This document shows, in pieces, positions 1 to 52,522 of a stretch of DNA of 64,000 bases. The stretch lies in IMG/VR virus record IMGVR_UViG_3300043446_002182; one strand, written 5' to 3'. The DNA is from an uncultured virus (IMG/VR IMGVR_UViG_3300043446_002182) (lineage: Duplodnaviria; Heunggongvirae; Uroviricota; Caudoviricetes). The translations under genes and the position numbers were made by a program. The notes below the pieces were generated by a model. It had not been told where the DNA came from and did no database searches. It saw only the letters and a list, made by a program, of their open reading frames with translations. Every line of letters starts with the position of its first letter. Position 1 is the first letter of the stretch.

Positions 1-2995
1 TATTTTGCCGTTAGGTAGTTCAATTGGTTCACCGTCTCAAAAATTTTCAACGGTCTATGCCGATAACATATATGGCACTGCATCCATTGCTGTCAGTGCT
101 TCATATGCTCCCGGTGCGCCGTCAATCAGTGCTTCATATGCTTTAACTGCTTCATATGCATTAAATGGTGGAAATGGAGGAAGTGGAACTGGTTCGGCAT
201 CAACGGCAAGCATTGGACTGGTATCTCTTGATTCAAATATGGCGACGAAAGTTCCATTTTTTAGTCAAGACAATTCTCTATCGGCATCAAAAGTTTCGGT
301 GACAAATGGATTGACCGTAAACGTTTATACTGATTCCCATACCGCACCGCCAATGGAACGGGTGTTGTATATCGGTCGTGACGGAAACGTGAATACTTGG
401 GCAGCGATGGGGTTCTATAACGATGCTGGTGGAACCAATGCAAAGTATTGGTTGAACTATGCCGACCAAGTAAACAATCTTGAATGGTCTGCTGTTAGCG
501 ATGATTTTTCAATTGTGAGTCCGTGGTTGACGGTAACTCGTTCTGGCTCGGCTATTTCTCAAATCCTTTTCCAAACAGATACTTCAATCAAAGGCAATTT
601 ACTTCCATCAACAAACCTGACCCGTTCTTTAGGAACTGCATCATTGCAATGGAAAAATGCATGGATTCAAAACGTATTTGGAACTGCGTCTTTTGCAAAC
701 ACGGCATCATTCATTACTTCTTCTGCAATCTCAGGCAAGATAACCAACGCAGTTGTGTCGGCATCATTCGCTTCGATGTCAATCAGCGCATCCTATGCGC
801 CATCCGCACCATCAGTTAGTGCGTCCTACGCTGCGACTTCTTCCTATGCTTACAACGCTGGAACGGCAAGTTTGTTGCTTGGTTCGATTGAAAGTGCTTC
901 GTATGCGTTGTCGGCATCCTTTGCTCAGACTGCATCGTTCATTACAACCGCAGCCACAGCATCGTTCGTATCAGCTTCGGCAATTTCGGGAAAAATAACC
1001 AATGCGGTAGTGACTGCTTCGTGGGCTTCGGCATCACAGACTGCGGTCACTGCGACAAGTGCTAACACCGCAACCACGGCTACGACTGCTTCGTGGGCGG
1101 CAACGGTAACGGCTTCAGGAATCATCGGGAATCCACAAATAGCTTTGTCAGCATCGTGGACTTCCGCCTCACTTTCGTCAAGTTATTCCCAAACAGCATC
1201 GTGGGCATTGTCAGCATCTTACGCACCATCCGCACCATCCATCAGTGCATCCTATGCTGAAACCGCCTCATATGCATATCAGGCAGGAACGGCAAGTTTG
1301 CTGCTTGGGTCGGTGGAAAGTGCGTCATACGCTTTGACCGCTTCGTTTGCATTTTCGTCATCGAATGCAATATCATCCAGCAATTCATTTTCGTCATCTT
1401 ATGCGGGAACGGCAAGTTTGCTGCTTGGGTCGGTGGAAAATGCAACTATCGCAGTTTCAGCATCGTTTGCTTCGGCTTCTATTTCTGCAAGCTATGCCTT
1501 GAGTTCTTCGGCTACGATTAGTGGCTCATATTCATTCAATGCAGTAAATGCCGAATCGTCATCATATCCTTGGGCGGTATTTTCAGGAAGTCCCGTCCAC
1601 ATTTCAAAACCAGTTGGAATTGGTGTCCAACAAATATCGGCTTCTCGACTTTCAATTCTGGAAACGACAAGTAATCATGTATCTGCCTCAGTTGTTACAA
1701 TCCACACAACTAGGACAGATACACAAGTAGGAACGTTAGATATTAGAAACTTGGCGTCATCGGCAAACGCAAACGCCCGTTCCGGCATCTTGCTTACGTT
1801 GGGGCCGACAGGGAGTCTTGAGGGTGGTAGTATTTTTGTAACTAGAACTGCCACTCCCGCACAAGGTCTGGTTAATGGTTTGAACATTACTCCGAACGCA
1901 GCCTCGGCGGACATTGGTATCCGAACTGGTGCGGCATTGAGTGGTTCCGTATCTGGTCCTCAACTGCAAATCAAAGCAAACGGAGCAATTGGTATGGGCG
2001 TTGCTACCCCCACCAATGCTCGTTTACATATCGGTGGAACAGAATTGGCATTCTACAACGCCACCATTCGTTTGACCAATGGTTCTGCTGGTGGTGCTGA
2101 CGTTTACATGGCTGCAACCGACGATGCGTGGGGAGGTTCGGTTACTGGAAAATTCTTGATTGGAACGGGCGACCCTTCGTCGGGAACTCCTATTCTTCAA
2201 CTTTTCCCAACCTCGGCAAGCGTTGGTATTGGTATTGCAAACAATCTTCAGCCTCAAGCTAAACTCCATGTCCAAGGAAATATCAGTGCAAGCTTGGTCA
2301 CAGCATCTTTGGCGGGAACGGCAAGTTGGGCAAACAATGCTCTCACTTCAAATACGGCCTCTTTTGTTTTAACAGCATCGTTTGCATTCCAAGCAACCAG
2401 TGCATCATGGGCACCCTCGGCTGCATCAGATATAGCAGTCTCAGCGTCTTGGGCGTCTCAATCATTAAGTTCATCATATGCCACTACTGCATCGTATAGT
2501 ATCAGTTCGTCGGCAAGTAACACTGCCTCGTTCGCTTTCTCAGCATCATATGCCCCCGGTGCTCCTGCTATCACAGCATCGTTTGCAATTACTGCTTCAT
2601 ATGCGTTGAATGCCTCGGGGCAAAATGCAGCAAGTTCGAGAGCAATGGTTTTGTGTGCAGGTTTCACACCATATTTGACTGGTGCTGACGTGGCCGAAAT
2701 TCCAGTTCCATATTCAAGCGATGGAACAACACCGTTATCATGGTCCGTCAACCGTGTCAATTTGAGAGTTCAACTCTCAGGCAGTACGACTTCATCCGTA
2801 ACGATACAGAAATCATCAGATGCAACTGTTTTCAATCCCGTCTTTGTTACATCAATGAGTTTGAATTCAAGTTCTTACCAAACCTACACGGGGTCATTGG
2901 TTGGTGTAGTGAGTGGCGACAAACTCCGTTTCTTCGTGAATACCATAGGAACCGCACAGTATTGGACAATTACTACCGAAATCACATCGTTATAA
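1..2995 (+). CDS. Ser/Ala/Thr-rich tail fibre-like protein (5' end probably outside window)
   Basis: Frame is open from the window edge. Many SASYA/TASFA/SASWA repeats and fibre-type motifs (VGIG...P.AKLHVQGNISAS). Lies upstream of tail genes. Confidence 0.75.
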   Translation, partial: ILPLGSSIGSPSQKFSTVYADNIYGTASIAVSASYAPGAPSISASYALTASYALNGGNGGSGTGSASTASIGLVSLDSNMATKVPFFSQDNSLSASKVSVTNGLTVNVYTDSHTAPPMERVLYIGRDGNVNTWAAMGFYNDAGGTNAKYWLNYADQVNNLEWSAVSDDFSIVSPWLTVTRSGSAISQILFQTDTSIKGNLLPSTNLTRSLGTASLQWKNAWIQNVFGTASFANTASFITSSAISGKITNAVVSASFASMSISASYAPSAPSVSASYAATSSYAYNAGTASLLLGSIESASYALSASFAQTASFITTAATASFVSASAISGKITNAVVTASWASASQTAVTATSANTATTATTASWAATVTASGIIGNPQIALSASWTSASLSSSYSQTASWALSASYAPSAPSISASYAETASYAYQAGTASLLLGSVESASYALTASFAFSSSNAISSSNSFSSSYAGTASLLLGSVENATIAVSASFASASISASYALSSSATISGSYSFNAVNAESSSYPWAVFSGSPVHISKPVGIGVQQISASRLSILETTSNHVSASVVTIHTTRTDTQVGTLDIRNLASSANANARSGILLTLGPTGSLEGGSIFVTRTATPAQGLVNGLNITPNAASADIGIRTGAALSGSVSGPQLQIKANGAIGMGVATPTNARLHIGGTELAFYNATIRLTNGSAGGADVYMAATDDAWGGSVTGKFLIGTGDPSSGTPILQLFPTSASVGIGIANNLQPQAKLHVQGNISASLVTASLAGTASWANNALTSNTASFVLTASFAFQATSASWAPSAASDIAVSASWASQSLSSSYATTASYSISSSASNTASFAFSASYAPGAPAITASFAITASYALNASGQNAASSRAMVLCAGFTPYLTGADVAEIPVPYSSDGTTPLSWSVNRVNLRVQLSGSTTSSVTIQKSSDATVFNPVFVTSMSLNSSSYQTYTGSLVGVVSGDKLRFFVNTIGTAQYWTITTEITSL
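860..1439 (+). repeat. Direct repeats in fibre gene encoding GTASLLLGS(I/V)E, three copies
   Basis: ggaacggcaagtttgctgcttgggtcggtggaaa is identical at about 1286-1319 and 1406-1439, with a diverged copy at about 860-893. Confidence 0.9.
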
Positions 2996-3031
2996 TAAAG
3001 GAAATTTCCATCGGTTTCACTATGTAATGTT

Positions 3032-4129
3032 ATGGCAGCGAGTCAATTCAAAGTTTATGATTGGGGCGACCCCGGAGCACCGACATTAGATGGAACATCT
3101 GGTTCTCTCATTCGTGTTTTGGAAGGATGTCTCGTCAATGGTTATGGCACAAAAACCCCTGTGGGATGGACACAGCCCATTCCAACCATTTCAGCAAGTT
3201 GGGGTTACATGGCATGTTTCAAACAACCTTCGGGGTCGGGATGCACGTTGATGATTAACGATGGTGCCCCTACCGGTAGTTTGAGTGGTAGCGGTGTTCC
3301 CGTCGGAAGTCAAATTTACGGAACAATGGAAGCATGGGCAACGGGCTGGGAAACTCTTCTTGGGTTTACTGGTTCTGCCACAGGTAACACTGGTAGTGGT
3401 CAAATTGGAACAGGTAGTGGTCAGTTTCCCCTACCCAGCATGACAGGATTGGGTGATGGGCTTGATACATCTGGTTCGGTTGAATGGTTGAAAGCCGCAA
3501 ATCTTGGAAGTCGTCAGCAGAGACCGTGGAGAATTTATGCGGACGCATACACAATGTATTTTTTTGTAGGTCATGGCACAGTTGATGAGTTTGCCTATTC
3601 TCTTTATGGGTTTGGTGACATTTACTCGTTCAAACCTACTTCCGACAGATACAAGTGTATGATTATGGGAAGAATACGGCGTATTGTTGCCACCACTCCA
3701 CAATTTGACACCAGTGATTTCTTTGTATCAATCACTGCCACAGGAATTGCTCCTGTATTTTTTCAACGCTCGTTCACGGGTATCCCGGGAGCTATAGCGG
3801 GTAATAAAATTGGAAGTTCTAACTTTTGTAATATGGCACTTGGTTCTACCAACTATTCTCCGATGGTTGGAATAGTAAGAAGCACCGGACAAAACGAAAA
3901 TATATGTCCAATCACGCCGATATTAACAACCGATGGAACTACTGCTATCCGAGGAAAGTTTCGTGGACTGTGGTTTCCAAGCCATCACTCTACAACTTTG
4001 CTTGATGGTCAGATTATTTCTGGAAGTAATCATAACAACGGACGAATTTTCCAAGTTATCCGCCGTGGCCCTGCAAACGGAATATGGGCGATGGAAATTT
4101 CAAACACAATTGAAACGAACGACAACTAA
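3032..4129 (+). CDS. Putative virion/tail protein, paralog 1
   Basis: N-terminal D.GAPTL.G..GSL..VL..CLVNGYG motif of the kind seen in phage tail-associated proteins; C-terminus EISNTIETNDN. Confidence 0.65.
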   Translation: MAASQFKVYDWGDPGAPTLDGTSGSLIRVLEGCLVNGYGTKTPVGWTQPIPTISASWGYMACFKQPSGSGCTLMINDGAPTGSLSGSGVPVGSQIYGTMEAWATGWETLLGFTGSATGNTGSGQIGTGSGQFPLPSMTGLGDGLDTSGSVEWLKAANLGSRQQRPWRIYADAYTMYFFVGHGTVDEFAYSLYGFGDIYSFKPTSDRYKCMIMGRIRRIVATTPQFDTSDFFVSITATGIAPVFFQRSFTGIPGAIAGNKIGSSNFCNMALGSTNYSPMVGIVRSTGQNENICPITPILTTDGTTAIRGKFRGLWFPSHHSTTLLDGQIISGSNHNNGRIFQVIRRGPANGIWAMEISNTIETNDN

Positions 4130-4132
4130 AAT

Positions 4133-5158
4133 ATGACATCACAGTTTACAATATATTCGGCATCGGACCCTGCTGCACCACAACTAAATGGATTGTCGGG
4201 TTCTTTAATTGATGTTCTCAATGGTTGTCTATACACTGGTTATGGGACAAAAACTCCATTGAAATGGCTTAAGCCAATTCCCGACGACCCTGTGTATGAT
4301 GTTGCATGTTGGCAGCAACCCTCGGGGTCTGGTCTTATTCTTCATATCAACGATACGGGACCGTTTTCTTCTTCTGTTGCGTGGACTCAAGAAGCATGGG
4401 CAACTGGATATGAATCTATTTTGGGACTTACTGGAAGTTTTCCAAACGGAACTGGTTTTGGTCAGTTTCCATACCCCGGCCAAACTGGACTTTCAAACTT
4501 TCCATCTTCAACTTCGGGGTCGGTAATTTGGAGGAAGAGCGACATTCGTTCAAACGCATCCCGCCATTGGATTTTGTTTGGGGATGCATATGGATTCTAC
4601 CTTTTCGTCGCACATAACCAAACGCAGTATTCTCTATACACATTTGGTGATATATTCTCATTCAAACCCGGAAGAGATGCATACAAATGTGTTTTAAGCG
4701 GAAGAATTCAAAGTTCCAACGCAAACAGCATTACGATTGACCAATCCGATTACGTATTTCAACCCGACTTTGGAACTTATCCAATGTATGCTGCTCGGTC
4801 ATCTGGTGGTGGAGGACGCTCAATTCGTATGGTCAAAAATGGGGATGCAGGTAAATGTAGTATGGCATCAGGAGTTCAATACGTTCTGATGGCTGGATTG
4901 ATTCCCGCACCAAATGCGGTTGATGGTGCGATTTATATGAGTCCATTGTGGGCATGTGAAGTTGATAGCTCGTCTTTGCGTGGACGCTTCCGTGGGCTAT
5001 GGTTTCCAACTCATTTAGTTTCAAACTTTGGAGACGGTCAAACGTTTTCTGGAACAGGTGAACTTTCGGGAAAAACATTCATGATAATAAGCCCCGGAGT
5101 AAACAGCGGGCACTTTGCAGTTGAAATTTCAAACACCGTTGAAACCAACGATAACTAA
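4133..5158 (+). CDS. Putative virion/tail protein, paralog 2
   Basis: Same N-terminal motif, FGDIFSFKP, RGRFRGLWFP and EISNTVETNDN as paralog 1. Confidence 0.65.
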   Translation: MTSQFTIYSASDPAAPQLNGLSGSLIDVLNGCLYTGYGTKTPLKWLKPIPDDPVYDVACWQQPSGSGLILHINDTGPFSSSVAWTQEAWATGYESILGLTGSFPNGTGFGQFPYPGQTGLSNFPSSTSGSVIWRKSDIRSNASRHWILFGDAYGFYLFVAHNQTQYSLYTFGDIFSFKPGRDAYKCVLSGRIQSSNANSITIDQSDYVFQPDFGTYPMYAARSSGGGGRSIRMVKNGDAGKCSMASGVQYVLMAGLIPAPNAVDGAIYMSPLWACEVDSSSLRGRFRGLWFPTHLVSNFGDGQTFSGTGELSGKTFMIISPGVNSGHFAVEISNTVETNDN

Positions 5159-5161
5159 CAT

Positions 5162-6136
5162 ATGGCACAATTCACAATTTATCAATCAACCGACTCGGGC
5201 GCACCAACATTGACTGGTTTGACTGGTTCTTTGCTTACGGTTTTGGATGCCATCCTTGTCAATGGATATGGAACCCAGCCGGGGGCTGGGTGGCTAAAAC
5301 CTATGGCAAATACCAGTAGTTACGGTATCTATCAATTGCCATCTGGCTCAACTGGTCATTATTTATTCGTTGATGATGCTGGTTCTGGAAGTGCATTGGG
5401 TACGGAAGCTCGTCTGCAAGGATGGGACAGCATTACTACATTCGATAACGGTGCAGTGACAGGAAGCAATCAATTTCCAACATTGGCACAACTGGCTATC
5501 GGACGTGGCTCTGTTATTGCGAGAAAAAGCACTGCTCCAACTGCTGTAGCAAGAACGTGGATTGCGTTTGCAGATAGTCGGTCGTTGTATTTCAATGTTC
5601 TAACGGGCGATGTTGCCAACAACTATTTTTCGTTTATGTTTGGCGAGTTCTTTTCAATCAAATCTGGTTCTGTAGATACTGGTAGAACTATGATTGCAGG
5701 AAGAAGCGTTGCAAGTAGTTCTCTGGCGGCGACAGAAAAGCTTGATACGTTAAGTTACACGATTACAACGGCAGTAGCAGGGAATTTTGCGGCACATGCT
5801 TTTGGTGGTGGTGGTTCCTCAATTACATTGAATAAACATGGTGATGCAGGGAAAAGTAACTCTGCAACGTCGCTATTGGGAACTGTTCAGTATTTCAATT
5901 CTGCGGATTCTGGTCTTTACATATCACCTGTTTGGGTTGTAGATAATGCAACTTCAACTGTAAGAGGAAGAATGCGGGGATTCCACCAATTCTTACATGC
6001 AATTTCAAACGTTTCAGATGGACAAGTGTTTACTGGTTCTGGTGAGTTTGCAGGACGAAATTTCCAAGTTGTAAAACAAACCGGAAACTCTGGTGTCTAT
6101 TTCATGGAGACTACCAATACATTGGAAACAAATTGA
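5162..6136 (+). CDS. Putative virion/tail protein, paralog 3
   Basis: STDSGAPTLTGLTGSLLTVLDAILVNGYG...RGRMRGF...ETTNTLETN aligns with paralogs 1 and 2. Confidence 0.65.
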   Translation: MAQFTIYQSTDSGAPTLTGLTGSLLTVLDAILVNGYGTQPGAGWLKPMANTSSYGIYQLPSGSTGHYLFVDDAGSGSALGTEARLQGWDSITTFDNGAVTGSNQFPTLAQLAIGRGSVIARKSTAPTAVARTWIAFADSRSLYFNVLTGDVANNYFSFMFGEFFSIKSGSVDTGRTMIAGRSVASSSLAATEKLDTLSYTITTAVAGNFAAHAFGGGGSSITLNKHGDAGKSNSATSLLGTVQYFNSADSGLYISPVWVVDNATSTVRGRMRGFHQFLHAISNVSDGQVFTGSGEFAGRNFQVVKQTGNSGVYFMETTNTLETN

Positions 6137-6137
6137 T

Positions 6138-6659
6138 ATGGCTATCACCAAAGGACTATTAACAAAAAAAGCAGTGGACTTAATTCCAAACTCATATGCT
6201 TTGAATCCAAGTGGTAGTTCTGCTCCGGTATTACGTGGTATTGCAACAAATGCGCCATCATCAATGGAAGGGGATGATTCGTCAGGCATAAGAAACTACG
6301 TCTATGGATTGTCAAAAGAACTAAGTGAGGGGAGTCCGTCTGCACCGTGTATTAGACTTGAATATCCTTCGTTTTGGAGATTTCGCTGGGTGGTAAAGCC
6401 CGGGCAACGTCAAATTTCAGTTCGGGTAAAACAAGTGAAAGCATTCACGGGGCAGCGTCCGATATTGACTGTCAAAGCCAATTCAAACGTTGGATTAACT
6501 ACTGACCAAGTAGCGGTCGCACCTAATGGGACGGATTGGGTAGTAGTTGGGCCTATCATTTTTACAGCAACGGGAACAGATATGGTTTATGTTGAAGTTG
6601 AAAATCGGCTTCAGATGACCAATGGGCCTTTGTTTATTGACCGAATAGTAGCAACATGA
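6138..6659 (+). CDS. Hypothetical beta-rich protein, probably tail-associated
   Basis: ATG at 6138 directly after the stop of paralog 3; beta-strand-like C-terminal half. Confidence 0.6.
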   Translation: MAITKGLLTKKAVDLIPNSYALNPSGSSAPVLRGIATNAPSSMEGDDSSGIRNYVYGLSKELSEGSPSAPCIRLEYPSFWRFRWVVKPGQRQISVRVKQVKAFTGQRPILTVKANSNVGLTTDQVAVAPNGTDWVVVGPIIFTATGTDMVYVEVENRLQMTNGPLFIDRIVAT

Positions 6660-6712
6660 TAATTCCACACGAACTTTTAGTATGGTATTTGGATGCTCCC
6701 GTAGTATGTATA

Positions 6713-6818
6713 GGCACTGATTTCGAGATTGATACCCGTAATCAGTTGTCACTTAGCGGGTCAATGCACGATATTGATGAGAGCTATGCTCTCGACCGTC
6801 GGCGTGCCGACATTTTTT
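6713..6818 (+). ncRNA. Candidate structured RNA or attenuator leader (pseudoknot plus hairpins)
   Basis: Follows TATGTATA (6705-6712). Stems ACTGATT/AATCAGT, loop ACCCG/CGGGT, GAGAGC/GCTCTC, GTCGG/CCGAC followed by T6. Confidence 0.5.
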
Positions 6819-6835
6819 AACCACAAAGGAAAGTT

Positions 6836-7123: not shown

Positions 7124-7702
7124 ATGACGCCGGAAGAGTTCATCTTCGAGTATCTTGAGGCCGACCAAGATACGGGTGCTGGGTCGTATGAGAAGATGAT
7201 TTCCGAAATTCAAACTCTTGATTGGGAAAAAGTCAAGCCTCACATTCTGAAACTTCGTTACTTCTACTTTCTGAAGACATCCTACTGGATGATTATCTCG
7301 TCAGAAGTAAAGCGGAGAAGTAAGTGGAAGTGCAATTCCTGTTTCGGTAGAGTTGGTCTTCAAGTTCACCATGAAACCGAGGGCGATGCCAACCACGGGC
7401 AAGAACATCTTCTTTTGCTGGGCGGTCTTATTCGTGGGCTTCGTTGTGTTTGTGAAAAGTGTCATGAAAAAGAACACGGCCCTGCAATCAAAGTGAAAGA
7501 TGCAGAAAAGAAACGGCAGAAGAATCTTCGCAAAGAAAACATTCTCAACCAACTTCCTTATTACCCCGGTCGGATTCCCGAAGAAAGCATCAGCGGTTCA
7601 TCGTTTGTGTTGACTCGAAAGTTATTGGAAGAACTTGAGCACGAACGGAAAATCATGATAGAGCGGAAGCTTTATGATGGTTGGAAAATTCATCGTCTAT
7701 AA
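7124..7702 (+). CDS. HNH-family endonuclease-like protein
   Basis: CNSC...LQVHH...CVCEKCHEKEH motif. Confidence 0.7.
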   Translation: MTPEEFIFEYLEADQDTGAGSYEKMISEIQTLDWEKVKPHILKLRYFYFLKTSYWMIISSEVKRRSKWKCNSCFGRVGLQVHHETEGDANHGQEHLLLLGGLIRGLRCVCEKCHEKEHGPAIKVKDAEKKRQKNLRKENILNQLPYYPGRIPEESISGSSFVLTRKLLEELEHERKIMIERKLYDGWKIHRL

Positions 7703-7833
7703 AAAAGAAACGCTCCCCCGAGGGAGCGTTTCAGTTGAAGAGTAGAGCGGTGGCAGTCAAAAACAATGAACATTGTTATATTCCAACCGCCGTTCTCCTA
7801 TGCGTAACTTCTTGGTTGATGAGAACCAACCAA
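7700..7833 (-). ncRNA. Candidate structured small RNA
   Basis: Minus-strand TATTTATA at 7835-7842, no convincing ORF, several stems, ends at a terminator. Confidence 0.5.
7701..7733. terminator. Intrinsic terminator hairpin, strongest on - strand
   Basis: gaaacgctccc-ccga-gggagcgtttc with an upstream A-run (T-run on - strand). Confidence 0.8.
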
Positions 7834-7922
7834 ATATAAATAGTATCTAAAACCGGAAATCTTTTAAGTTGACTAAATAAACAAATAGTTTATTTTGACA
7901 AACATATCTGATATTTATCAAC

Positions 7923-8351
7923 ATGACAAAAGAAGAACGGTCGGCTTACAACAAGGCATATAACGAAAAGAACAAAGAGAAAATTCTCCTTCGCAAAAAA
8001 CAGTTCTATCAATCCAACAAAAAACGTCTTACCAAAGTTCAAACTGAATATAATAAAGCACACTATGCTGAAATGCGGGAATATCAGAGAACATACTACC
8101 GACTAAAATGCTATGGTATAGACAAAGCAACATTCGATAAAATGTTGCATGATCAACAGGGAAAATGTGTTATATGTGAAGTATTGTTTGATTTGAATAG
8201 TAAAGTGACCAGTCCACATGTTGACCATAACCATGCCACAGGCAAAGTAAGGTCGCTTCTCTGCCACAAATGTAATTTGGGATTGGGGAACTTTTTAGAG
8301 AGACCAGATTCTCTCATCAAAGCGGCGGAATACCTTAAGTATCATGCTTGA
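7923..8351 (+). CDS. Endonuclease VII-like HNH homing endonuclease
   Basis: CVIC...HVDHNHATGKVRSLLCHKCNLGLG; basic helical N-terminal repeats. Confidence 0.85.
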   Translation: MTKEERSAYNKAYNEKNKEKILLRKKQFYQSNKKRLTKVQTEYNKAHYAEMREYQRTYYRLKCYGIDKATFDKMLHDQQGKCVICEVLFDLNSKVTSPHVDHNHATGKVRSLLCHKCNLGLGNFLERPDSLIKAAEYLKYHA

Positions 8352-8382: not shown

Positions 8383-8390
8383 TATTTATA
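8383..8390 (+). promoter_or_regulatory. Putative late promoter TATTTATA upstream of sheath (representative copy)
   Basis: The motif recurs upstream of about 20 transcription units on both strands. Confidence 0.7.
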
Positions 8391-8429
8391 GTTAAGTCAA
8401 ATCCATGAACCAATCGAAGGATACAATTT

Positions 8430-11400
8430 ATGCCAATCACTGAAGGTGGAAGATTTACCCCCAATGACCGCATCGTAAGCCCGGGTGTATTCACCCGTGA
8501 AAATGACCTATCTGGTATCGCTCAAGGCGTTGCCGACATCGGAGGCGTGGTATTAGCCCCGTTTGCAAAAGGTCCGGGTTTCTCACCAACACTTGTTCGC
8601 AGTGTTTCAGAACTTGAAAGCAAGTTCGGAACTGCTGACGGAACTCTCTATGGTCCATACACGGCCAAGCAATACATTCAAGAAAAAGGATTTGTCACGG
8701 TCTGTCGTGTCGGTGCTTTGACTGGTTATCACCAGAAGTATCCTTGGGTCATTTGGGCAGAAAAGGGAACGTGGATTCGTCAACAAGACTCAGCATCAAT
8801 TGTTGCTGGTTCTTCTACGTTGAGCCAAACTGGTTTGACTTGGGTAACTGCTGGTCAACAGACCAGTGCTTCCGTAAGTTCCTACACTGGTTCTGTGACT
8901 TTGGTCAGCCAATCCGTCACCCTTGGTCTCACGGGCAGCACTCTTTACAACAACACAACTGTTGTTGGCACGATTAGCGGTAAGTTCAGCTTCACTGGTT
9001 CATTGAACCTTTCGACTGCTTCTGCAACCTCGGCTTCTATCTTGGAAGCAATCTTCGATGCAGGATATTTCACTGGCTCACTTGCTGGTGCAACTTTCTT
9101 GAGCAGCCAAACCCCATTCGATGCCGCATTCTTGACGAATGCATGGCACTTGACTGGTGTTAGCCAATCCGTTGATTCTTGCAACAATCTCACCTTGAAT
9201 GTTTCGGGTGATATTTCGGGAAGCATCGGTAACTACAACGGCAACTTCGTCAGTGGTTCTGGCACATTCGACCCTTGCACGGGAACGTGGACAATGGGTG
9301 GAACGGAATACAAGATTCTCGCCGTTCTTGCCGACACGCAAAACGCAACCATCAATTCTGATTTGGAAGCACCCGGCTTCTATGGTTCAACCCAATCCTA
9401 TGCTCCTTCGCCTTCTGGAAGCGATTCTGTTGGTGTGGCATTCGACTTGGCTTTGAGCGCATCTGAAAATGGTGGCTACGGCATTTACAACTTCTCACTT
9501 GACCCAAACAGCGTCAAGTATATCACCAACGTATTCGGTGCTGATGCACAAGCTGGCGACCCTGACACGTATGTTGCAGGAACCAAGCGTGAAGCAGCAT
9601 ACCTTTACAAAGTGTTTGAAGACGACATTGCAACGGTCTCTGGAAATTCTTCGCAATGGAGAATCAACGGAACGGCAATGCCATCAGGCTCATGGACTGG
9701 TGAACCTCTCAAGTTTGTTGACCAATGGTCATTGGACTTGCTGAATGGTGACTCGGCCTATGGTCTTACCAACGCTTACACTCCTTGGGTTGTTTCCCAA
9801 AAGGTCTCTCCTTGGAATGGTGGAACTTCGACTCGTTTCCCATTGTTCCGTCTCTTGACGTTGAGCGATGGCACGAACCAGAATACCTCGTTCAAGATTG
9901 AAATCTCCCAAGTCAAGTTGGCTGGCACGGTTGCTGGCAGCGATTGGGGAACTTTCACCCTCACGGTGCGTGATTACAGCGACACCGACAAGAAGCCAAA
10001 GATTTTGGAGCAGTTCAACAACTGTAACCTCGACCCTGACTCTCCAAACTTCGTGGCTCGCAAAATCGGCGACCGCTACAACTACATCCGCTTCGATGGT
10101 AAAATCATCGAATTTGGAACGTATGACAATCTCAGCAAGTATATTCGTGTTGAAATGTCATCGAATCCTTGGCCAACCACGGCTGTTCCTTACGGCTTCC
10201 AAGCCTACACGGTTCCAGTCAACGGCGCACTTGGTCAGCAATGCAATCCAATTGCATACACCAAGGCATCGGTCTATGGATTGTTCCCCGGCAAGTATCC
10301 ATCGGGTATTGACTTCGGTGGTGCTCCTGCGGGTGCAGATAGCCAACTCACCGCATTGTATCCAACCTCTTCGGCTGGTGTCGAACATTACAGAGACAAT
10401 CTGCAATACTTCGCCCCTGTGCCAGATGGTGCTACGGTGGGTAACAACACACTCTTTGCTCTTGATGAAGAAATCACTGCAAATGGTATCGGAACTGGTT
10501 CTTACATCAGCGCAAGCAACGTAGTGCCAGCCATCTATGACGCAGCAAATGAAACCACCTACATCAAGATGCGTAAGTTCGTCTTCGGATTCCAAGGTGG
10601 ATTTGATGGTCAATCGCCAGCTATTCCGCTGAATCTCGGTGCAGACATCACTGCGGGCAACACCCAAGGTTTGAACTGCGCTAACAGCACGACAGCAGGT
10701 TCGATTGCATACAATCAATGTATTGGCGCACTCGGAAATGCAGACGAGTTCGACATCAACTTGATTGTAACTCCGGGTATCATCTACTCGTTGCACAGCT
10801 ACGTCACCAACACGGTGGTTGAAATGTGCGAACGCCGTGGTGATTGCTTCTACATCGCCGACCTCTACCAAGATGATGGCAACCCAACGTCGGGTCAAAT
10901 TGATGAAGTCGTAAGTTTGGCTTCTGAGTTCGACACGTCCTACGCTGGAACTTACTATCCTTGGATTAAGATTAAGGATACAAACACGAACAAAATCGTG
11001 ACTGTTCCTCCTTCGGTAGTGATGCCAGCAGTTTACGCAGCCAACGACCGTGTGGCTGGTGAATGGTGGGCAGTAGCAGGTTTGAACCGTGGTGGTATTC
11101 CAGTGGCAACACAAGTCACCGACCGCACGACCCACGTTGAGCGTGATACGCTCTATGAAGGCCGTGTCAACCCAATCGCAGCATTCCCCGGTCAGGGTAT
11201 CTGTGTGTGGGGTCAGAAGACCTTGCAAGTCGAGTCATCGGCTCTTGACCGCATCAACGTCCGTCGTTTGTTGATTGAAATCAAGAAGTTCTTCGCTTCG
11301 ACTGCACGCTACTTGGTGTTCGAGCAAAACACGGCTGCAACACGCAACAAGTTCTTGGCAATCGTCAACCCTTACTTGGAGAGCGTGCAGCAACGCAGTG

Positions 11401-11582: not shown

Positions 11583-11612
11583 AAAAGGGGCGGAAAATTC
11601 CGCCCCTTTTTT
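11583..11612. terminator. Bidirectional intrinsic terminator
   Basis: aaaaggggcggaa-aa-ttccgcccctttttt between convergent genes. Confidence 0.85.
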
Positions 11613-12040
11613 TATTGCACTTGCAACTTTAACTTATTCAGGATTTCTCTAAGGGTATATTTTTGTTCGAGTTCATTCTGGTCGAAAGTGTTTTCGAGAA
11701 GGTTTATCGCTGAAAGTAATTCTGTTTTATGGGCATGTATTGAATTTTCGGTAACTGAATTCCATTCAAGATTGTCTGCTTTATTATCCAGTTTGTTTCG
11801 ATTTTTATGATTGACAACAGACTTTTTTGAAGGGTTTGGTATAAATGCCAATGCTACTAATCGGTTTACACGATGCGTAGATGGTATTCCTTGTTTGTAT
11901 AAATGAACTACGGCATACCCTGTTTTCACTATACCTGCCTTAAGTATTCTTTTGGACTTTATTCTCCTAATACGTCCTAAATTTGATACTTCGTATATGG
12001 AGTCATATCCATCAATTGCTTTCCATTTTTCTTGTCTCAT
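11612..12040 (-). CDS. NUMOD4-HNH homing endonuclease
   Basis: EKWKAIDGY...YEVSNLGRIR (NUMOD4); RLVALAFIPNP...VNHKNRNKLDNKADNLEW (HNH). Start placed at ATG 12040, after the TATTTAT motif. Confidence 0.9.
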   Translation of the reverse strand: MRQEKWKAIDGYDSIYEVSNLGRIRRIKSKRILKAGIVKTGYAVVHLYKQGIPSTHRVNRLVALAFIPNPSKKSVVNHKNRNKLDNKADNLEWNSVTENSIHAHKTELLSAINLLENTFDQNELEQKYTLREILNKLKLQVQ

Positions 12041-12131
12041 TGCAATAAATAGGCGTCTCAAACGGAAGGACGCCCTTCTTCTTTTATAGAATGTTGACGG
12101 GAAGGTGGTTTTATGCCATATTTATTTACGT

Positions 12132-15229: not shown

Positions 15230-18200
15230 ATGGACACCGACCTTAAAAAAATCATAGACGAGACAATCGAACAATTCTTCGAGAATGCTCCTATCAAGAT
15301 GATTGAAAAAGGTGTTCGGGAAGAAACGTTTGACGTTTGTCCTCATTGCAAGAAAGAAATCTACGAGAAACACGAATACACCGAAGACGGTGGAAAAACG
15401 TGGCGTCATAGTGATTGCAAAGGCTTGATTCGTCGCCCGCCGCTTGACCCAGCATCTATCCCCGACTGGCTTCGTCCATATATGGATAACAGCCTCAACG
15501 AGTATTTCGGCAGCGACCCGTCTAAGATTGGAATTGAGAGTGGTGAGAAAAAGTATTCCGAGCAAGAGCCGGGTGGACAAATGGCCGCAGTAAATTGCAA
15601 CGAAACTGCGTTCCGTGTTTACAACGAAACACTTTGCCCCGCTCTGTGGGACGAACAACAACACCTTGACCCCGAGGTTCGTTTGAATCTTCTCCGCATG
15701 GCACAAGACTTCTACGAGAAGACCAAATTCACCGCTCCAATTCTGGATGTCTATTTGATGGGTTCGATTGCCAACTACAATTGGACGCCTGATAGTGACG
15801 CCGATGTTCATGTCATCATTGATTTTACCCAACTTCAAATGCCGAACGAAACGGCTTCCAAAGTTGCCAAGTCCGCTGGGGCACAATGGAATCTCGAACA
15901 CAATGCGACCGTAAAAGGCCACAAGGTCGAAATCAACATTCAAAGTGTCAAAGCCGAAAAACCACACGTCACGGGAATTTATTCCTTGATGAAAGACGCA
16001 TGGATTCGTAAGCCAACAAAGATGAATGTGCAAGTGAACAAACCATTGATTCAAGTTCACTACACTGAAATCAAGAAATTTGTCGAGAGTGCTATTCAGT
16101 CTGGCGACCGTGAAAAGATGAAGACTGCAAAGGACTATCTGGACGATTATCGCCAGCATGGTTTGGACACCGCAGGAGAGTTGAGCACGCAGAACATTGT
16201 TTACAAGATTCTTCGTGCCAAGGGACTTATCAAGACTTTGAAGGATGCTATCATCGTTGCCTACGATAAGGAAATGTCAGTGGACGAGGCGGAAGCCCCA
16301 ACCATGACCAAGAAAGATTACATCGGAAGTATTATTGATGGAGAAGTGCGTGGCGAACCCGTCCCAGCAGGTAAGGTGAAGTTCTACATGCATAACGATT
16401 TTCCCGGGTTGATTTCAGGAATGAATTCGACCAACTGGCGGTATAATGCTGAGAAGAATAGGGTGTTGTGGAACACGCAGCCCGAAGAAGAAAGCAAATC
16501 CAAAGTGACCGACTTTTTGACAAAGCGTGGCATTGTGAACCCGATTCACAAAAACATGTATAACTTTGAAGAAGTCACACAGGCAGACATCAAAGACCGC
16601 CACCCTCACCCCTTTGCTCCCCAAAAGTTGTCACCCGACAATGAACTCGTTCCCGATTTGGAAATGATGACGCTTGACAACCTGAAATCGTTGATGAAGA
16701 AGGCTGGACGTGAATGGCGTTATGCTCGTGCTCATGAAGATTCTGAAGGCTGTAAACGAGCACTTGAAAAGTCGAAGCTTTTCCATGATGAAATCAAACG
16801 TCGTCTTGCTTACATCAATAAGCCCGTGGCTGAAATGGCTAACATTTCGTTGCAAGGAAAACAGGCATTTGCCAATGACAACCCGTTGAAAAATGCTACG
16901 GTTGAAGATGTGAGCGGGAATGTTGTGCTTTTCAGGTCAGATACGGGTGGGTTTTTCGCACCCGGGTTTACGTTGGTGTATTTCATGGATTCCGATGAAT
17001 CGGCACAAGCCATGAAAGATGGGAAGATTCCATATTTGATGGTTCCTCGTGGCACGTTTCATTCAGGTGGAAATCCAATCACCGACATCTGGAAGAAAAA
17101 GTTTCAGAAGCCCGGAACGGAACATATTCTCGGCGTTGTCGAAGGTAATTCCAATGAGAATGAGATTTACATTGACATGATTACGGTTCGCCCCGGCTGG
17201 CAGCGTAACAGCATTGCCCGTAAGATGATTGAGATTCTGAAAAAGAATTTCCCAAAGGCCAAGCTTGAAACTTCAAGCACAACCGACAAAGGTGCAAAGT
17301 TCTTCAAGGCTGTAAATGAATCCGTTGGCTATGAACGTGACCCAAACTATCGGTCATCTGCTGATTTTTTGGAACGACGGGACAGGCAAATGTGTGAGAT
17401 TGCTACTTTTCTAAAAGAAAACCCCGGAACAACCCCTATTCCTTGGAAAACCATTCCCGCATCACTATTGAAGAAAACGTGGCTTATATTCGGGAAACGA
17501 AACATAGTTCATGAGAATGCGATTGATAAGATTGCAGACCAGATATTGACGAACATTGCACGTCTCTATGTGTCCAATGAGTTTGCAGGCCACAGCACCA
17601 ACTATCACATGCCCGAAGAAGTGTTGGAGAATTGCGGTATTGAGTTTTCGGAGAAGGAATGGGATAAAAATTGTTGGCGGTTCGAGAACATTTCCGACTA
17701 TGGAATGAAACCGTTACAAAAAATCTACCACCAAATCTTCGAGGCCGACACGCCCGAGGAAAAGCTTTACGCATGTGACCGAGCATTAAACGTTGTTCAT
17801 CAACGCAGTGACTTAGCATCAATTTTTGTTGAGGGTGGGACTGCTACTCTGAATGCTGTTGCTGAACAAGGTGGCTATGATTCTGGATATTCTTACGGCG
17901 ATGTCAACCGAATGATGCAGAAAGTCAATGAGAGAATGGTCCATTCTTTTGAAACTGATTATGGTCGTGGTCCAACGTATGTTGAAATCTTTCAGAACCC
18001 AACTACAAAAGAACTTCGGGAATGTAAGCCCCACTATGAAATTGGAGCATTATTGACAGATAAAGACATCTATGTATGGAATCGAGAAAAAGCATACCAC
18101 AACAATGTTAAGACGCAATTGAAGTTGCCAGAAGCTTTGTCATTGATGCTTATTCCTGATAACAGCAACATTAACCGAATGGATATTCTTGTGACTGATG

Positions 18201-18526
18201 CCGTTAAAGGAACAAAGTGGGATAACAATCCACAGACCGAAAATTTCATCCGCAATCATCCATTCTTTCGTGGCAAACAAATTGACCAAATAATGTATTG
18301 GAACGAAGACATTGTAGGTGACTGGTCCGCTCTAAAAGATGAAGTCGCTGAAGGTTATGGTGCAGGAGTTCCCGAAGATGATAGGTTGCATATTCCAGAC
18401 CACCGCTGGCAGATTCGCAGTAAAGATGCTCCAAAGACTCCAAAGATGCCATCTGAACAATTGACTGAGACTGAAAAAGAGGCAATCAATGAACTCGTTG
18501 ACCAAGTAATTGCTGGGATGTTATGA
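15230..18526 (+). CDS. Multi-domain (polyvalent) protein: Zn ribbon, Pol-beta-type nucleotidyltransferase, GNAT-like domain and unknown domains
   Basis: CPHC..HSDC; LMGSIANYNWTPDSDADVHVIID; IYIDMITVRPGWQRNSIARKMI...TDKGAKFF. Confidence 0.75.
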   Translation: MDTDLKKIIDETIEQFFENAPIKMIEKGVREETFDVCPHCKKEIYEKHEYTEDGGKTWRHSDCKGLIRRPPLDPASIPDWLRPYMDNSLNEYFGSDPSKIGIESGEKKYSEQEPGGQMAAVNCNETAFRVYNETLCPALWDEQQHLDPEVRLNLLRMAQDFYEKTKFTAPILDVYLMGSIANYNWTPDSDADVHVIIDFTQLQMPNETASKVAKSAGAQWNLEHNATVKGHKVEINIQSVKAEKPHVTGIYSLMKDAWIRKPTKMNVQVNKPLIQVHYTEIKKFVESAIQSGDREKMKTAKDYLDDYRQHGLDTAGELSTQNIVYKILRAKGLIKTLKDAIIVAYDKEMSVDEAEAPTMTKKDYIGSIIDGEVRGEPVPAGKVKFYMHNDFPGLISGMNSTNWRYNAEKNRVLWNTQPEEESKSKVTDFLTKRGIVNPIHKNMYNFEEVTQADIKDRHPHPFAPQKLSPDNELVPDLEMMTLDNLKSLMKKAGREWRYARAHEDSEGCKRALEKSKLFHDEIKRRLAYINKPVAEMANISLQGKQAFANDNPLKNATVEDVSGNVVLFRSDTGGFFAPGFTLVYFMDSDESAQAMKDGKIPYLMVPRGTFHSGGNPITDIWKKKFQKPGTEHILGVVEGNSNENEIYIDMITVRPGWQRNSIARKMIEILKKNFPKAKLETSSTTDKGAKFFKAVNESVGYERDPNYRSSADFLERRDRQMCEIATFLKENPGTTPIPWKTIPASLLKKTWLIFGKRNIVHENAIDKIADQILTNIARLYVSNEFAGHSTNYHMPEEVLENCGIEFSEKEWDKNCWRFENISDYGMKPLQKIYHQIFEADTPEEKLYACDRALNVVHQRSDLASIFVEGGTATLNAVAEQGGYDSGYSYGDVNRMMQKVNERMVHSFETDYGRGPTYVEIFQNPTTKELRECKPHYEIGALLTDKDIYVWNREKAYHNNVKTQLKLPEALSLMLIPDNSNINRMDILVTDAVKGTKWDNNPQTENFIRNHPFFRGKQIDQIMYWNEDIVGDWSALKDEVAEGYGAGVPEDDRLHIPDHRWQIRSKDAPKTPKMPSEQLTETEKEAINELVDQVIAGML

Positions 18527-22608: not shown

Positions 22609-22686
22609 GGTTATAAATATATTTTTAGTAAGAAAAAGTGAAAAAAAAGCGAATGGCGGTCTATGTATTGAAAAGGTCACAACTAT

Positions 22687-24310: not shown

Positions 24311-24356
24311 AGTTGGATTATAGCACAAATCTCAAGGGTTGCAACTATTTATAATC

Positions 24357-42125: not shown

Positions 42126-42215
42126 ATATCTCCCGAAACTTTTGAAGTGCGTTGCTGAGAAAAATTTTTCAGCAACGTTACCTTCTATAAATATCTACTT
42201 ATACGTTACGCTAAA

Positions 42216-52508: not shown

Positions 52509-52522
52509 GTCTATAAATAGCC

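Follow-up and report, generated by a model that had tools for sequence, protein, structure and literature searches.

The minus strand of positions 7834-7701 in the stretch of uncultured Caudoviricetes DNA analysed here (IMG/VR IMGVR_UViG_3300043446_002182; 64,000 nt, hereafter the window) may well carry a gene for a structured small RNA that acts as an antisense RNA on the leader of the neighbouring tail-sheath messenger, a reading based on comparison of related sequences and which we hold tentatively, as falling just short of probable. The putative RNA gene occurs as a single copy in the window and is placed between an optional gene for a 192-aa HNH-like protein and the tail-sheath gene, in the opposite orientation. 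Its transcript would start just 3' of the motif TATTTATA, of the type that precedes the structural genes of this phage, and would end at an intrinsic terminator abutting the stop codon of the convergent HNH-like gene, giving a predicted length of ~132 nt in the window and 111-158 nt in relatives. From 5' to 3', it would consist of an optional hairpin, P1, then a further hairpin, P4, enclosed by P2 and P3, which together make a long helix with a bulge, and finally a U-rich strand with a terminal UGACU. A preliminary description of this DNA had proposed a stand-alone minus-strand RNA of about 130 nt, a proposal that is consistent, at the level of comparison, with 26 homologues, a promoter-like motif, a strand bias in the terminator and compensatory changes in the helices. 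The parts of the element are as follows.

7835..7842, minus strand: promoter-like TATTTATA at the element's 5' edge, exact in 25 of the 26 homologues
7812..7833, minus strand: P1, 5' hairpin TTGGTTG/CAACCAA of the predicted fold, 7 bp, loop GTTCTCAT
7805..7809, minus strand: conserved AGUUA (RGUYA), possible pseudoknot partner of UGACU 7759-7755
7795..7798, minus strand: P2 5' arm GGAG, pairing with CUCU 7742-7739
7783..7790, minus strand: P3 5' arm GCGGU-(U)-GG with a one-base bulge, pairing with 7753-7747
7763..7776, minus strand: P4, an almost invariant hairpin ACAAU-GUUC-AUUGU (98% pairing in 20 sequences)
7755..7771, minus strand: RNA core GUUCAUUG-UUUU-UGACU, the most conserved part, complementary to the sheath leader motif
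7747..7753, minus strand: P3 3' arm CC-ACCGC, pairing with 7783-7790
7739..7742, minus strand: P2 3' arm CUCU, pairing with GGAG
7701..7732, minus strand: intrinsic terminator with an 11-bp stem, loop UCGG and UUUUUU, abutting the HNH stop codon at 7700-7702

Homologues and Database Searches

Scans with DNA patterns, scans anchored on proteins and a covariance model together yielded 26 distinct homologues of the element in related phage contigs, which belong to uncultured freshwater and wastewater phages; each homologue lies directly 3' of a gene for the 192-aa HNH-like protein and faces it. Many of these sequences are close kin, so that the counts given below are not counts of independent events, and several of them are based on smaller sets, either the first 17 homologues or loci or 20 aligned sequences, rather than on the full 26.

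Outside these contigs, the exact pattern of the element had two matches, both due to chance, in 185,579 bacterial and archaeal genomes, and neither a DNA similarity search with the region nor a tblastn search with the HNH protein gave a match in 50,697 phage records; the nearest virus record (G001) is without this region. Rfam 15 has no match to the whole window at gathering thresholds, and an E-value search of 7650-7900 returned terminator look-alikes as its best hits (tsr31, 24.6 bits against a threshold of 50; Phe_leader, 21.8 against 55). Three known classes of RNA were considered and rejected: ARAGORN finds no tRNA or tmRNA gene in the window; the hammerhead-like letters CUGAUGA are present in the window and not kept in the relative L002, with an Rfam hammerhead match of 12 bits; and a guide of the omega-RNA type would be on the wrong strand, next to an HNH protein that is too small. 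A listing-level search of the literature on the motif as a phage promoter, on homing endonucleases with small RNAs and on phage small RNAs with the tail sheath retrieved nothing on this RNA family. Among the 13 sequencing runs listed there are four RNA-library runs of one study (X9-X12), in which the contigs are those of a relative with ~87% identity and, possibly through DNA carry-over, cover the whole 2 kb, so that they are silent on a small RNA, its strand and its ends.

Predicted Secondary Structure and Strand of the Putative RNA

The element folds much more stably than its shuffled versions on both strands, with -46.9 kcal/mol on the minus strand (z -5.07) and -48.4 kcal/mol on the plus strand (z -6.58). 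Covariance modelling, named in the preliminary description as a way to check the RNA, was run, and the helices stay paired through changes on both sides. In 20 sequences, 92.7% of the helix cells are paired, versus 32-62% when the partners are slid, and two-sided changes affect 14 cells versus 4.0 in shuffles, none of 500 shuffles reaching 14; with all 26 sequences, RNAalifold recovers P3 and P4, with compensatory changes in 6 of 13 pairs. P3 is paired in 98-100% of its cells and changes on both sides in 5 of its 7 pairs (20 sequences), the form in L168 being GGUUAAU-A-GG/CC-AUUAACC. The outer stem proposed earlier, GGCGGTT/GACTGCC, can indeed form in the window, but what the relatives support at this place is GCGGT-(T)-GG/CC-ACCGC (7790-7783/7753-7747). 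The inner hairpin was recognized correctly, with ACAAT/ATTGT present at 7776-7763, and among the homologues it varies by a G·U pair in L091 and a one-base insertion in L099. P2 is the weakest helix, with 71.8% of cells paired in the model-fitted alignment, and individual sequences form duplexes of their own, such as GAAGU/ACUUC in L091 and AGGGU/ACUCU in L099. At the 5' end, the expected hairpin was found as the 7-bp TTGGTTG/CAACCAA at 7833-7812; among the first 17 homologues, 11 have a hairpin with other letters (CTGTTGG/CCAACAG, GGATGG/CCATCC) at this position, and in the other 6 it is weak or missing.

The pseudoknot GTTCTC/GAGAAC suggested for this hairpin loop is possible only in the near relatives of the window, the loop being GAAA, AGAT or ATTT elsewhere. 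From the comparison we infer a possible pseudoknot between AGUUA and UGACU, in which 95.7% of cells are paired in the set of 20 sequences, with U·G at the Y position in 17 of them and C-G in 3; since UGACU is nearly invariant, this pairing displays no two-sided covariation.

The GC-rich terminator with its T-run stood up well: a terminator scan places an 11-bp stem with 7 G-C pairs at 7732-7707, followed by TTTTTT. The hairpin is kept in all 26 homologues, with a weaker U-run in the L088 group, and its stems, read in the minus sense, total 318 Watson-Crick pairs and 33 G·U pairs with a single A·C; 17 of the 26 sequences contribute one or more of these G·U pairs. The ratio of 33 G·U to 1 A·C points to a minus-strand transcript. 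The minus-sense fold is also the lower one in 13 of 17 sequences (mean 5.8 kcal/mol), the plus-sense fold being better in the window, L089 and L134. P3 and P4 are strand-neutral (consensus of -8.5 versus -8.14 kcal/mol on either strand), and G·U versus A·C counts of 8:7 in P1 and 16:10 in P2 are not decisive for the strand.

The Promoter-Like Motif

As described earlier, TATTTATA is present at 7842-7835 on the minus strand. Together with its complement, it occurs 15 times in the window versus 1.10 expected, a number reached by none of 100 shuffles, and in sense orientation it lies 0-45 nt 5' of ~10 gene starts in the window, with TATAAATA before 1-2. In L155-L223, 43 of 49 distinct-leader or promoter-less cases also have it ahead of the sheath gene. 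At the RNA element, where L258 is the homologue without the exact motif, its position is constant whether the next plus-strand gene encodes Endonuclease VII, a GIY-YIG protein or the sheath, and in the L168 group, in which an IS200/IS605 element is located between the HNH gene and the RNA, the latter retains its own promoter motif and terminator. From these regularities of sequence we infer that TATTTATA is a promoter. At 42186, TATAAATA is found 22 nt upstream of a plus-strand gene (42216) having no TATTTATA, so that the motif may work in both orientations.

The Optional Block Upstream of the Tail-Sheath Gene

The neighbourhood of the element contains the following features.

7124..7702, plus strand: 192-aa HNH-like gene (PHROG 119 'HNH endonuclease', E 5.9e-08)
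7923..8351, plus strand: Endonuclease VII-type gene (Pfam PF02945, E 9.5e-19), between the putative promoters of the RNA and of the sheath gene
8383..8390, plus strand: TATTTATA of the tail-sheath gene (motif scan)
8395..8410, plus strand: motif in the sheath leader, AGTCAAATCCATGAAC (most relatives: AGTCATTCAATGAAC), a candidate target for the RNA core

In the HNH-like protein, which has no sequence match in Pfam or PDB, the columns CxxC..HH..H..CxxCH are invariant in 12 sequences, and strong conservation extends beyond the nuclease motif to the C-terminal 70 residues, which presumably resemble a DNA-binding domain. The gene was found in exactly 9 of 80 sheath-related loci, the same 9 that bear the RNA; the two always co-occur, adjacent in one block, so that linkage alone could explain why they travel together. 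One optional block, of ~1.3 kb in the window, comprises the HNH gene, the putative RNA gene and the promoter-leader region of the sheath gene. In a sheath tree of 67 rows (FastTree), this block is present in 18 rows, all within one clade of 30, and its distribution forces at least five gains or losses. The nearest sheath relatives of the window, L155 and L156 (83-84% identity), are without the block, and homology to relatives of this type stops at ~7102 and resumes at ~8416. Like a homing cassette, the block has an intact nuclease motif and a patchy presence at one intergenic site; patchiness within a clade is usual for free-standing homing-endonuclease insertions. In the best cultured sheath relative, Microcystis phage Mel-JY01 (43%), there is no HNH gene, and the 21 nt between a small gene and the sheath gene leave no room for the RNA.

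The Endonuclease VII-type gene is a separate, sporadic insert outside the RNA unit: among the compared loci, it occurs only in the window and L001, in L131, and in L088 and L150, and its position is taken by a GIY-YIG gene in L002 and L244.

The preliminary description had also paired the RNA with a second non-coding RNA at 6713-6818, of parallel layout, and with a 94-aa protein. The segment 6713-6818 lies in a 54-aa ORF (6656-6820) whose amino-acid sequence is conserved in L002, L147 and L131, and the presumed twin is thus a small protein gene; the link of the RNA to the 94-aa protein found no support.

The Sheath Leader as Candidate Target

In the proposed mechanism, the core GUUCAUUG-UUUU-UGACU would pair with AGUCA-N(1-4)-CAAUGAAC at the extreme 5' end of the sheath messenger, by two short helices of 5-7 and 6-8 bp. 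Such pairing would alter the stability or the translation of this abundant late messenger, in a direction that the sequence does not give. The leader motif is present in all of the first 17 loci and, when distinct leaders are counted, in 8 of 8 from RNA-bearing loci versus 0 of 35 from RNA-less ones; core and leader are ~130-600 nt apart in one block, and linkage could explain this co-occurrence. In each of the 26 pairs listed, core and sheath leader can be joined by blocks of 5-7 and 6-8 bp, and in 17 of 17 loci the predicted duplexes between core and cognate leader have energies of -14 to -21 kcal/mol (z -2.1 to -5.4 versus shuffled leaders). Apart from this, the sheath leaders are predicted to be mostly unpaired.

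Within the window, the sheath leader ranks second among 63 gene leaders for pairing with the core, and its duplex, with -14.1 kcal/mol, is outside the 25 best 30-nt windows of the 64 kb in a scan with a 31-nt core. The core is partly buried, since it lies partly within P4 and perhaps within the pseudoknot, and the base beside helix 1 pairs in just 7 of 17 loci. In L252 and L258, the RNA has CGAC or CGAU in place of UGAC and the leader has UCGA in place of GUCA, and the cognate duplexes are 2.9-4.6 kcal/mol better than those of the same RNA with the usual leader; in L175 and L238, a U-to-C change in the RNA is accompanied by no compensation in the leader. Over the 26 pairs, co-evolution of core and leader did not reach significance, cognate duplexes having a mean of -16.42 versus -16.09 kcal/mol for non-cognate ones (permutation p = 0.11). 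Many RNA-less relatives begin the sheath leader with a hairpin of its own, but others have short, unstructured leaders, so that a replacement of the leader's 5' hairpin in trans by the RNA is no more than a speculation.

Alternative Explanations

The minus-strand RNA could be real and have a purely local role, insulating the sheath gene from upstream transcription or restraining the HNH gene, which we regard as unlikely but worth serious consideration. Convergent transcription and the shared hairpin would then halt the HNH transcripts, the RNA being perfectly antisense to any read-through, and the resemblance to the sheath leader would have arisen incidentally, for instance through common descent. 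This agrees with the position of the terminator, which directly adjoins the HNH stop codon in all loci that lack an IS insert, and with a plus-sense hairpin that has A·C mismatches in 17 of 26 loci and a weak T-run in the window, which make HNH read-through plausible; a precedent, as far as the source describes it, is CfrI of cyanophage S-PM2, an antisense RNA tied to a homing-endonuclease gene (PMC12197685). What a local role leaves unexplained is that a central stretch of 25 nt in the RNA hardly varies whereas the HNH protein drops to 55% identity, that the sheath leader repeats the same 13 letters only in loci with the RNA, and that the L168 group keeps the RNA despite a 1.7 kb IS element separating it from the HNH gene. 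It is also conceivable, though quite unlikely in our judgement, that the core is a protein-binding site in DNA or RNA, occurring twice on the plus strand, as AGTCAAAAACAATGAAC at 7755-7771 and as AGTCAAATCCATGAAC at 8395-8410. The binder could be the HNH protein, with its strongly conserved C-terminal 70 residues, regulating itself and the sheath gene, or the copies could be remnants of recognition sites: both AGTCA..CAATGAAC copies have the same plus-strand orientation and flank the place at which other endonuclease genes are inserted, and the homing endonuclease I-TevI represses its own promoter via a site resembling its homing site. The lack of significant RNA-RNA co-evolution would be expected in this case. 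However, the half-motifs are spaced by 5-6 nt in the element versus 1-4 nt in the leader, which is unusual for a DNA site and tolerated in an RNA duplex, and a DNA site needs neither compensatory helices nor a minus-facing promoter nor a minus-biased terminator.

That there is no separate RNA gene at all, the element being the structured 3' UTR and terminator of the HNH messenger and TATAAATA at 7835-7842 the plus-strand promoter of the next gene, seems to us very unlikely. The plus strand folds as well as the minus strand in the window, P3 and P4 do not distinguish the strands, and TATAAATA, which we take to be the T4 late-promoter consensus, is found 80 nt upstream of the Endonuclease VII gene (7923), with another copy 22 nt before the gene at 42216. 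Against a plus-strand origin, the terminator has its 33 G·U and single A·C in the minus sense, in the window a long T-run follows the hairpin on the minus strand only, the motif is kept where no plus-strand gene intervenes between it and the sheath gene's own TATTTATA, and ~10 genes of the window have TATTTATA, and not TATAAATA, in sense orientation. As for coding potential, the earlier statement that no ORF exceeds 27 codons is true of the minus strand; on the opposite strand there is a TTG frame of 52 codons (7681-7839), which was rejected as a gene because it is broken by indels among the relatives. The 27-codon minus-strand frame itself (7773-7690) is hardly credible as a micro-protein gene. 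Its ATG is at the same position in 16 of 17 homologues, but it is removed in L099 by the one-base insertion, the peptides are alike only over the first 9 residues, encoded by invariant nucleotides, and then differ in sequence and in length (12 to >30), the frame passes through the terminator, and GGAGA, ~20 nt upstream, is too distant for a ribosome-binding site.

Comparison With Known Systems

If the minus-strand element is an antisense RNA gene, as we prefer to read it, it has several partial counterparts. The free-standing HNH cassettes of T4-like phages (mobA-E; the gene 18/19 insert) similarly include an optional HNH gene beside the tail sheath, with a patchy distribution; we know of no description in which such a cassette has a convergent small RNA gene with its own terminator, or a neighbouring gene with a matched leader. 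The omega RNAs of IscB and TnpB, and HEARO in Rfam, are likewise structured RNAs encoded beside an HNH-motif gene; they differ in that omega RNAs are on the same strand as a much larger nuclease, whereas here the RNA is on the opposite strand, the protein has 192 residues and no RuvC match, and the RNA matched no Rfam family. The c4 RNA of P1 and P7, a small promoter-to-terminator RNA that base-pairs with a neighbouring phage messenger, uses two short, separated blocks of complementarity, as is proposed here for the core.

Other short antisense regulators of phages are sar of P22 and OOP of lambda (PMC12197685). In the terms in which they are described there, sar and OOP resemble the putative RNA in being small promoter-to-terminator RNAs that base-pair with a neighbouring phage messenger. 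All three regulators, 70-130 nt in length, act in temperate phages on immunity or lysis-lysogeny genes, whereas the candidate target here is a major virion gene; moreover, the pairing site proposed here is the 5' end of the leader and not the ribosome-binding site, and the RNA rides on an optional nuclease block. The same source describes CfrI of cyanophage S-PM2 as an antisense RNA tied to psbA and to the endonuclease gene F-CphI (PMC12197685). Compared by description only, the two systems share a lytic myovirus in which a free-standing homing-endonuclease gene, next to a highly expressed gene, is accompanied by a non-coding RNA of the opposite strand. Unlike CfrI, as far as that description goes, the RNA proposed here overlaps the HNH frame by at most the stop codon (the U-run ends at 7701, the frame at 7702), and it has its own terminator and a trans complementarity to the leader of the gene that flanks it on the side away from the HNH gene.

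Biological Significance

To our knowledge, few small RNAs are known in strictly lytic phages, and hardly any with a structural gene as candidate target. The family described here, absent from Rfam, combines 26 sequences and a supported fold with a single obvious candidate target next door, and for this reason it is directly testable. A further idea, which we consider very doubtful, is that the block is a selfish cassette carrying both a small RNA and a substitute sheath leader dependent on this RNA, that is, an RNA-based 'addiction'; if it were true, the phage would have to retain the cassette in order to express an essential virion gene, through a regulator-target pair and not a toxin-antitoxin. 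Even if the proposed mechanism is wrong, the family provides a covariance model with which these uncultured myoviruses from freshwater and wastewater can be annotated, and it clearly exemplifies their TATTTATA promoter-like motif. If RNA and leader do cooperate, the block would show how an inserted selfish gene may repair or take over the expression of a neighbouring essential gene.

Genomic Setting of the Candidate RNA

Up to ~52 kb the genes of the window lie almost all on the plus strand, and the candidate small RNA, encoded on the minus strand, is situated between an HNH-like gene and an Endonuclease VII-type gene, which is followed by the tail-sheath gene.

7124-7702, plus strand, HNH-like gene, 192 aa (PHROG 119, E 5.9e-08)
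7833-7812, minus strand, 7-bp hairpin of the RNA (P1)
7776-7763, minus strand, inner hairpin ACAAU-GUUC-AUUGU of the RNA (P4)
7923-8351, plus strand, Endonuclease VII-type gene (PF02945)
8395-8410, plus strand, sheath leader motif AGTCAAATCCATGAAC
from 8430, plus strand, tail-sheath gene, 1045 aa (PF04984 and PF17482)

No cultured phage is close to the window: none matched in a DNA search, and the best-matching sheath protein from a cultured phage is that of Microcystis phage Mel-JY01 (43%). The neighborhood also contains three tandem paralogues of 324-365 aa (3032-6136, plus strand; mutual identity 31-44%; PHROG 9600 "tail assembly protein"), whose copy number differs between relatives, and, immediately past the sheath gene, a further endonuclease gene (11612-12061, minus strand; NUMOD4 and HNH_3).

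A Conserved, Structured Candidate RNA

Four diverged loci were reached via the HNH protein, and in them the region past the HNH stop codon is plainly conserved. Scanning with an exact pattern gave 14 true matches among 45 loci in viral contigs and 16 among 21 in metagenome contigs, the remainder being chance; in 185,579 bacterial and archaeal genomes the same pattern matched only twice, both times by chance. The covariance model built from 17 distinct sequences finds a single copy in the window and added more diverged members from loci retrieved by the sheath protein and by an HNH alignment, for a total of 26 distinct homologues. No Rfam family reached its gathering threshold, the sub-threshold hits all being terminator look-alikes, ARAGORN gave no match, and neither the RNA family nor the motif TATTTATA at its 5′ edge was found described in the literature.

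The fold comprises P1, which is optional (11 of the first 17 homologues); P2, a purine-rich arm pairing GGAG with CUCU and the weakest helix (71.8% of cells paired); P3, a bulged helix of GYGGU-N-GG with CC-ACCRC; and P4, a nearly invariant hairpin followed by a U-run ending in UGACU. In an alignment of 20 sequences, which was fitted to the model and so favors structure, 92.7% of cells are paired versus 32-62% when the partners are slid by 1-3 columns, two-sided changes affect 14 cells versus 4.0 in shuffles (0/500 shuffles), and five of the seven pairs in P3 show compensation. An independent MAFFT/RNAalifold analysis of the 26 sequences again predicts P3 and P4 and finds compensatory changes at 6 of 13 pairs, and in one relative (L168) the entire P3 is swapped for GGUUAAU-A-GG / CC-AUUAACC. 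We regard the element as very probably real, conserved and structured.

The outer stem GGCGGUU/GACUGCC of the preliminary description is favored by single-sequence folding but impossible in relatives with an altered P3, such as L168, because the UGACU strand stays unchanged, and the pseudoknot proposed between the loop GUUCUC and GAGAAC is confined to near kin of the window. The alternative tertiary pair RGUYA-UGACU can form in 95.7% of cells (variable position U·G in 17 sequences, C-G in 3) and, since two-sided covariation is absent, is left as a possibility.

An Optional Nuclease Block

Gene order is the same in every locus: tail-fibre genes, p188, a 94-aa gene (p94), the HNH gene, the convergent RNA, and the sheath gene, some loci having an extra endonuclease gene ahead of the sheath promoter. 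The RNA is found in 9 of the 80 loci retrieved by the sheath N-terminus (80 of 596 candidates), and the HNH gene in exactly the same nine and no others. The closest sheath relatives of the window, L155 and L156 (83-84% identity; p94 78%), have neither; their sheath gene follows ~107 nt after the 94-aa gene, and homology with the window breaks at ~7102 and resumes at ~8416, 14 nt ahead of the sheath ATG. In a FastTree phylogeny of 67 sheath proteins the block occupies 18 rows, all within one well-supported 30-row clade and interleaved with 12 block-less rows, and five or more gains or losses are required by the starred branches. The HNH alignment recovered 26 loci, all of them at this site; in the six new ones whose flank is long enough, the RNA immediately follows the gene. 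The HNH nuclease motif is intact. These sequence comparisons show the pattern expected of a free-standing homing-endonuclease insertion.

In the L168 group, where the RNA unit is intact, the HNH gene and the RNA are separated by an IS200/IS605 element (TnpA and TnpB). In L168 it occupies 481-2154 (the same contigs as L254 and L255), between the HNH stop and the RNA terminator, in one lineage, and encodes a 400-aa TnpB (PF07282, PF01385) and a Y1 transposase (PF01797), with flanking copies of the hairpin CTACGCTAAAGACGTAG. The gap between the RNA promoter and the sheath promoter, empty in most loci, is an insertion hot spot for additional endonuclease genes:

Endonuclease VII-type: window 7923-8351 (plus strand), L131, L088
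GIY-YIG: L002 4732-5580 (PF01541, E 4.7e-05)
GIY-YIG: L244 ~2320-3500 (by eye)

Strand and Predicted Transcript

The promoter motif previously described, TATTTATA, is present on the minus strand at 7842-7835 and points left. Together with its complement it occurs 15 times in the window versus 1.10 expected (0/100 shuffles), and sense copies lie 0-45 nt upstream of ~10 gene starts:

plus strand: 8430, 15230, 19259, 20808, ~24357, ~33338, 44313, 45082
minus strand: 22608, 52508

Because sense copies precede these starts, and TATAAATA is the sole such motif at one gene (42216; ambiguous for two others), we infer that TATTTATA is a promoter-like motif of the structural genes of this phage; the label "late" reflects the kind of genes downstream. 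Several genes start just 3 nt past it (22608-22619, 24346-24359 and 52508-52519; TATTTATAaccATG, TATTTATAatcATG and TATTTATAgacATG), a spacing which suggests leaderless or nearly leaderless messengers and a transcription start very near the motif. It also lies 6 nt upstream of the ATG of a 1098-aa protein (15230-18526, plus strand) with weak nucleotidyltransferase and GNAT acetyltransferase matches, all under the Pfam cut-offs. A second minus-facing copy (42193-42186), in a gap between plus-strand genes (42150-42193) and beside the hairpin GTTGCTGA..TCAGCAAC, may either be active as TATAAATA for gene 42216 or mark another short antisense transcript. Back-to-back motifs may have existed at this junction before the block, since a minus-facing TATTTATA (TATAAATA on the plus strand; ~2395-2450) is likewise found ~24 nt upstream of the sheath promoter in L155 and L156, which lack the block.

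TATTTATA is exact in 25 of the 26 homologues and is retained at the element's 5′ edge regardless of the plus-strand neighbor, be it Endonuclease VII (window, L131, L088), GIY-YIG (L002, L244) or the sheath promoter directly. The GC-rich terminator with T-run also stands: a terminator scan finds an 11-bp G+C-rich stem (7732-7707) with TTTTTT in the minus sense only, and upstream there is no other minus-strand gene that it could serve. With G·U and A·C scored equally, so that no strand is favored, and the 3′ hairpin read in the minus sense, the stems of the 26 sequences comprise 318 Watson-Crick and 33 G·U pairs and a single A·C; G·U pairs are present in 17 of the sequences. P3 and P4 are Watson-Crick and strand-neutral (consensus -8.5 vs -8.14 kcal/mol), counts in P1 and P2 do not decide the strand, and for 13 of 17 sequences the whole element folds to a lower energy in the minus sense (mean difference 5.8 kcal/mol), the reverse being true of L089, L134, L144 and the window. 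A separate minus-strand small RNA is the probable reading, with a predicted length of 111-158 nt (median 136; ~132 in the window). Material from RNA libraries consists of assembled contigs of a ~87% relative, spanning the whole region.

A conserved peptide gene was rejected: L099 lacks the ATG, and the shared part of the peptides is limited to the nine residues that the invariant nucleotides encode. The other ncRNA formerly placed at 6713-6818 proved to lie inside a 54-aa ORF (6656-6820, plus strand; MIIPHELLVWYLDAPVV...RRRADIF) that is conserved as protein, with amino-acid conservation and synonymous-type changes in L002, L147 and L131 and no Pfam match; a plus-strand hairpin with T-run (6798-6811) overlaps its end.

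Proposed Pairing With the Sheath Leader and Other Possible Roles

In every RNA-bearing locus the sheath leader, the 5′ end of the sheath messenger, carries AGTCATTCAATGAAC or a near variant 3-5 nt past its TATTTATA, complementary to the invariant core of the RNA, GUUCAUUG-UUUU-UGACU (7771-7755). The duplex predicted for core and leader consists of two helices, of 5-7 and 6-8 bp, separated by a small U-rich internal loop. The cognate duplexes have predicted energies of -14 to -21 kcal/mol (z -2.1 to -5.4 vs shuffled leaders, 17/17 loci), and apart from this pairing little structure is predicted in the leaders. With identical leaders counted once, the motif is in 8/8 leaders of RNA-bearing loci vs 0/35 of RNA-less ones (L155-L223); six further loci have no TATTTATA within 110 nt, and L224-L234 were excluded, their matches stopping short of the start codon. 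Of 63 leaders picked by hand from genes of the window, the sheath leader is the second-best partner of the core; by energy, the window duplex (-14.1) falls outside the 25 best sites of the 64 kb.

Covariation is scarce because both partners are almost invariant, and the difference between cognate and non-cognate duplexes is not significant (-16.42 vs -16.09 kcal/mol; p = 0.11, 26 pairs). L252 and L258 fit the pairing, with CGAC or CGAU for the usual UGAC in the RNA and UCGA for GUCA in the leader, their cognate duplex being 2.9-4.6 kcal/mol better than their own RNA with the usual leader; in L175 and L238 the RNA is changed and the leader is not. The core lies partly within P4, and since core and leader are neighbors in one block, their co-occurrence may be linkage. 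Within the sheath gene, GCAGTCGAAAGGTTCAATGAACCAG (8993-9025, minus strand) resembles the leader motif of relatives in antisense, probably by chance.

After leader pairing, the next in rank is a local function at the nuclease gene, as insulation or as antisense to read-through, which we consider unlikely. The closest precedent found in print is CfrI of cyanophage S-PM2, an antisense RNA that a review (PMC12197685) links to a homing-endonuclease gene. Somewhat less likely still, the two plus-strand copies of AGTCA..CAATGAAC would be a shared site bound by a protein, for example the HNH protein, which has a strongly conserved C-terminal 70 residues. A plus-strand 3′ UTR appears the least probable of the three; the minus-only terminator speaks against it, and the slightly better plus-sense fold of the window alone speaks for it. 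The best single mechanism, to which we give a little less than an even chance on the complementarity described, is that the RNA acts by pairing with the sheath leader.
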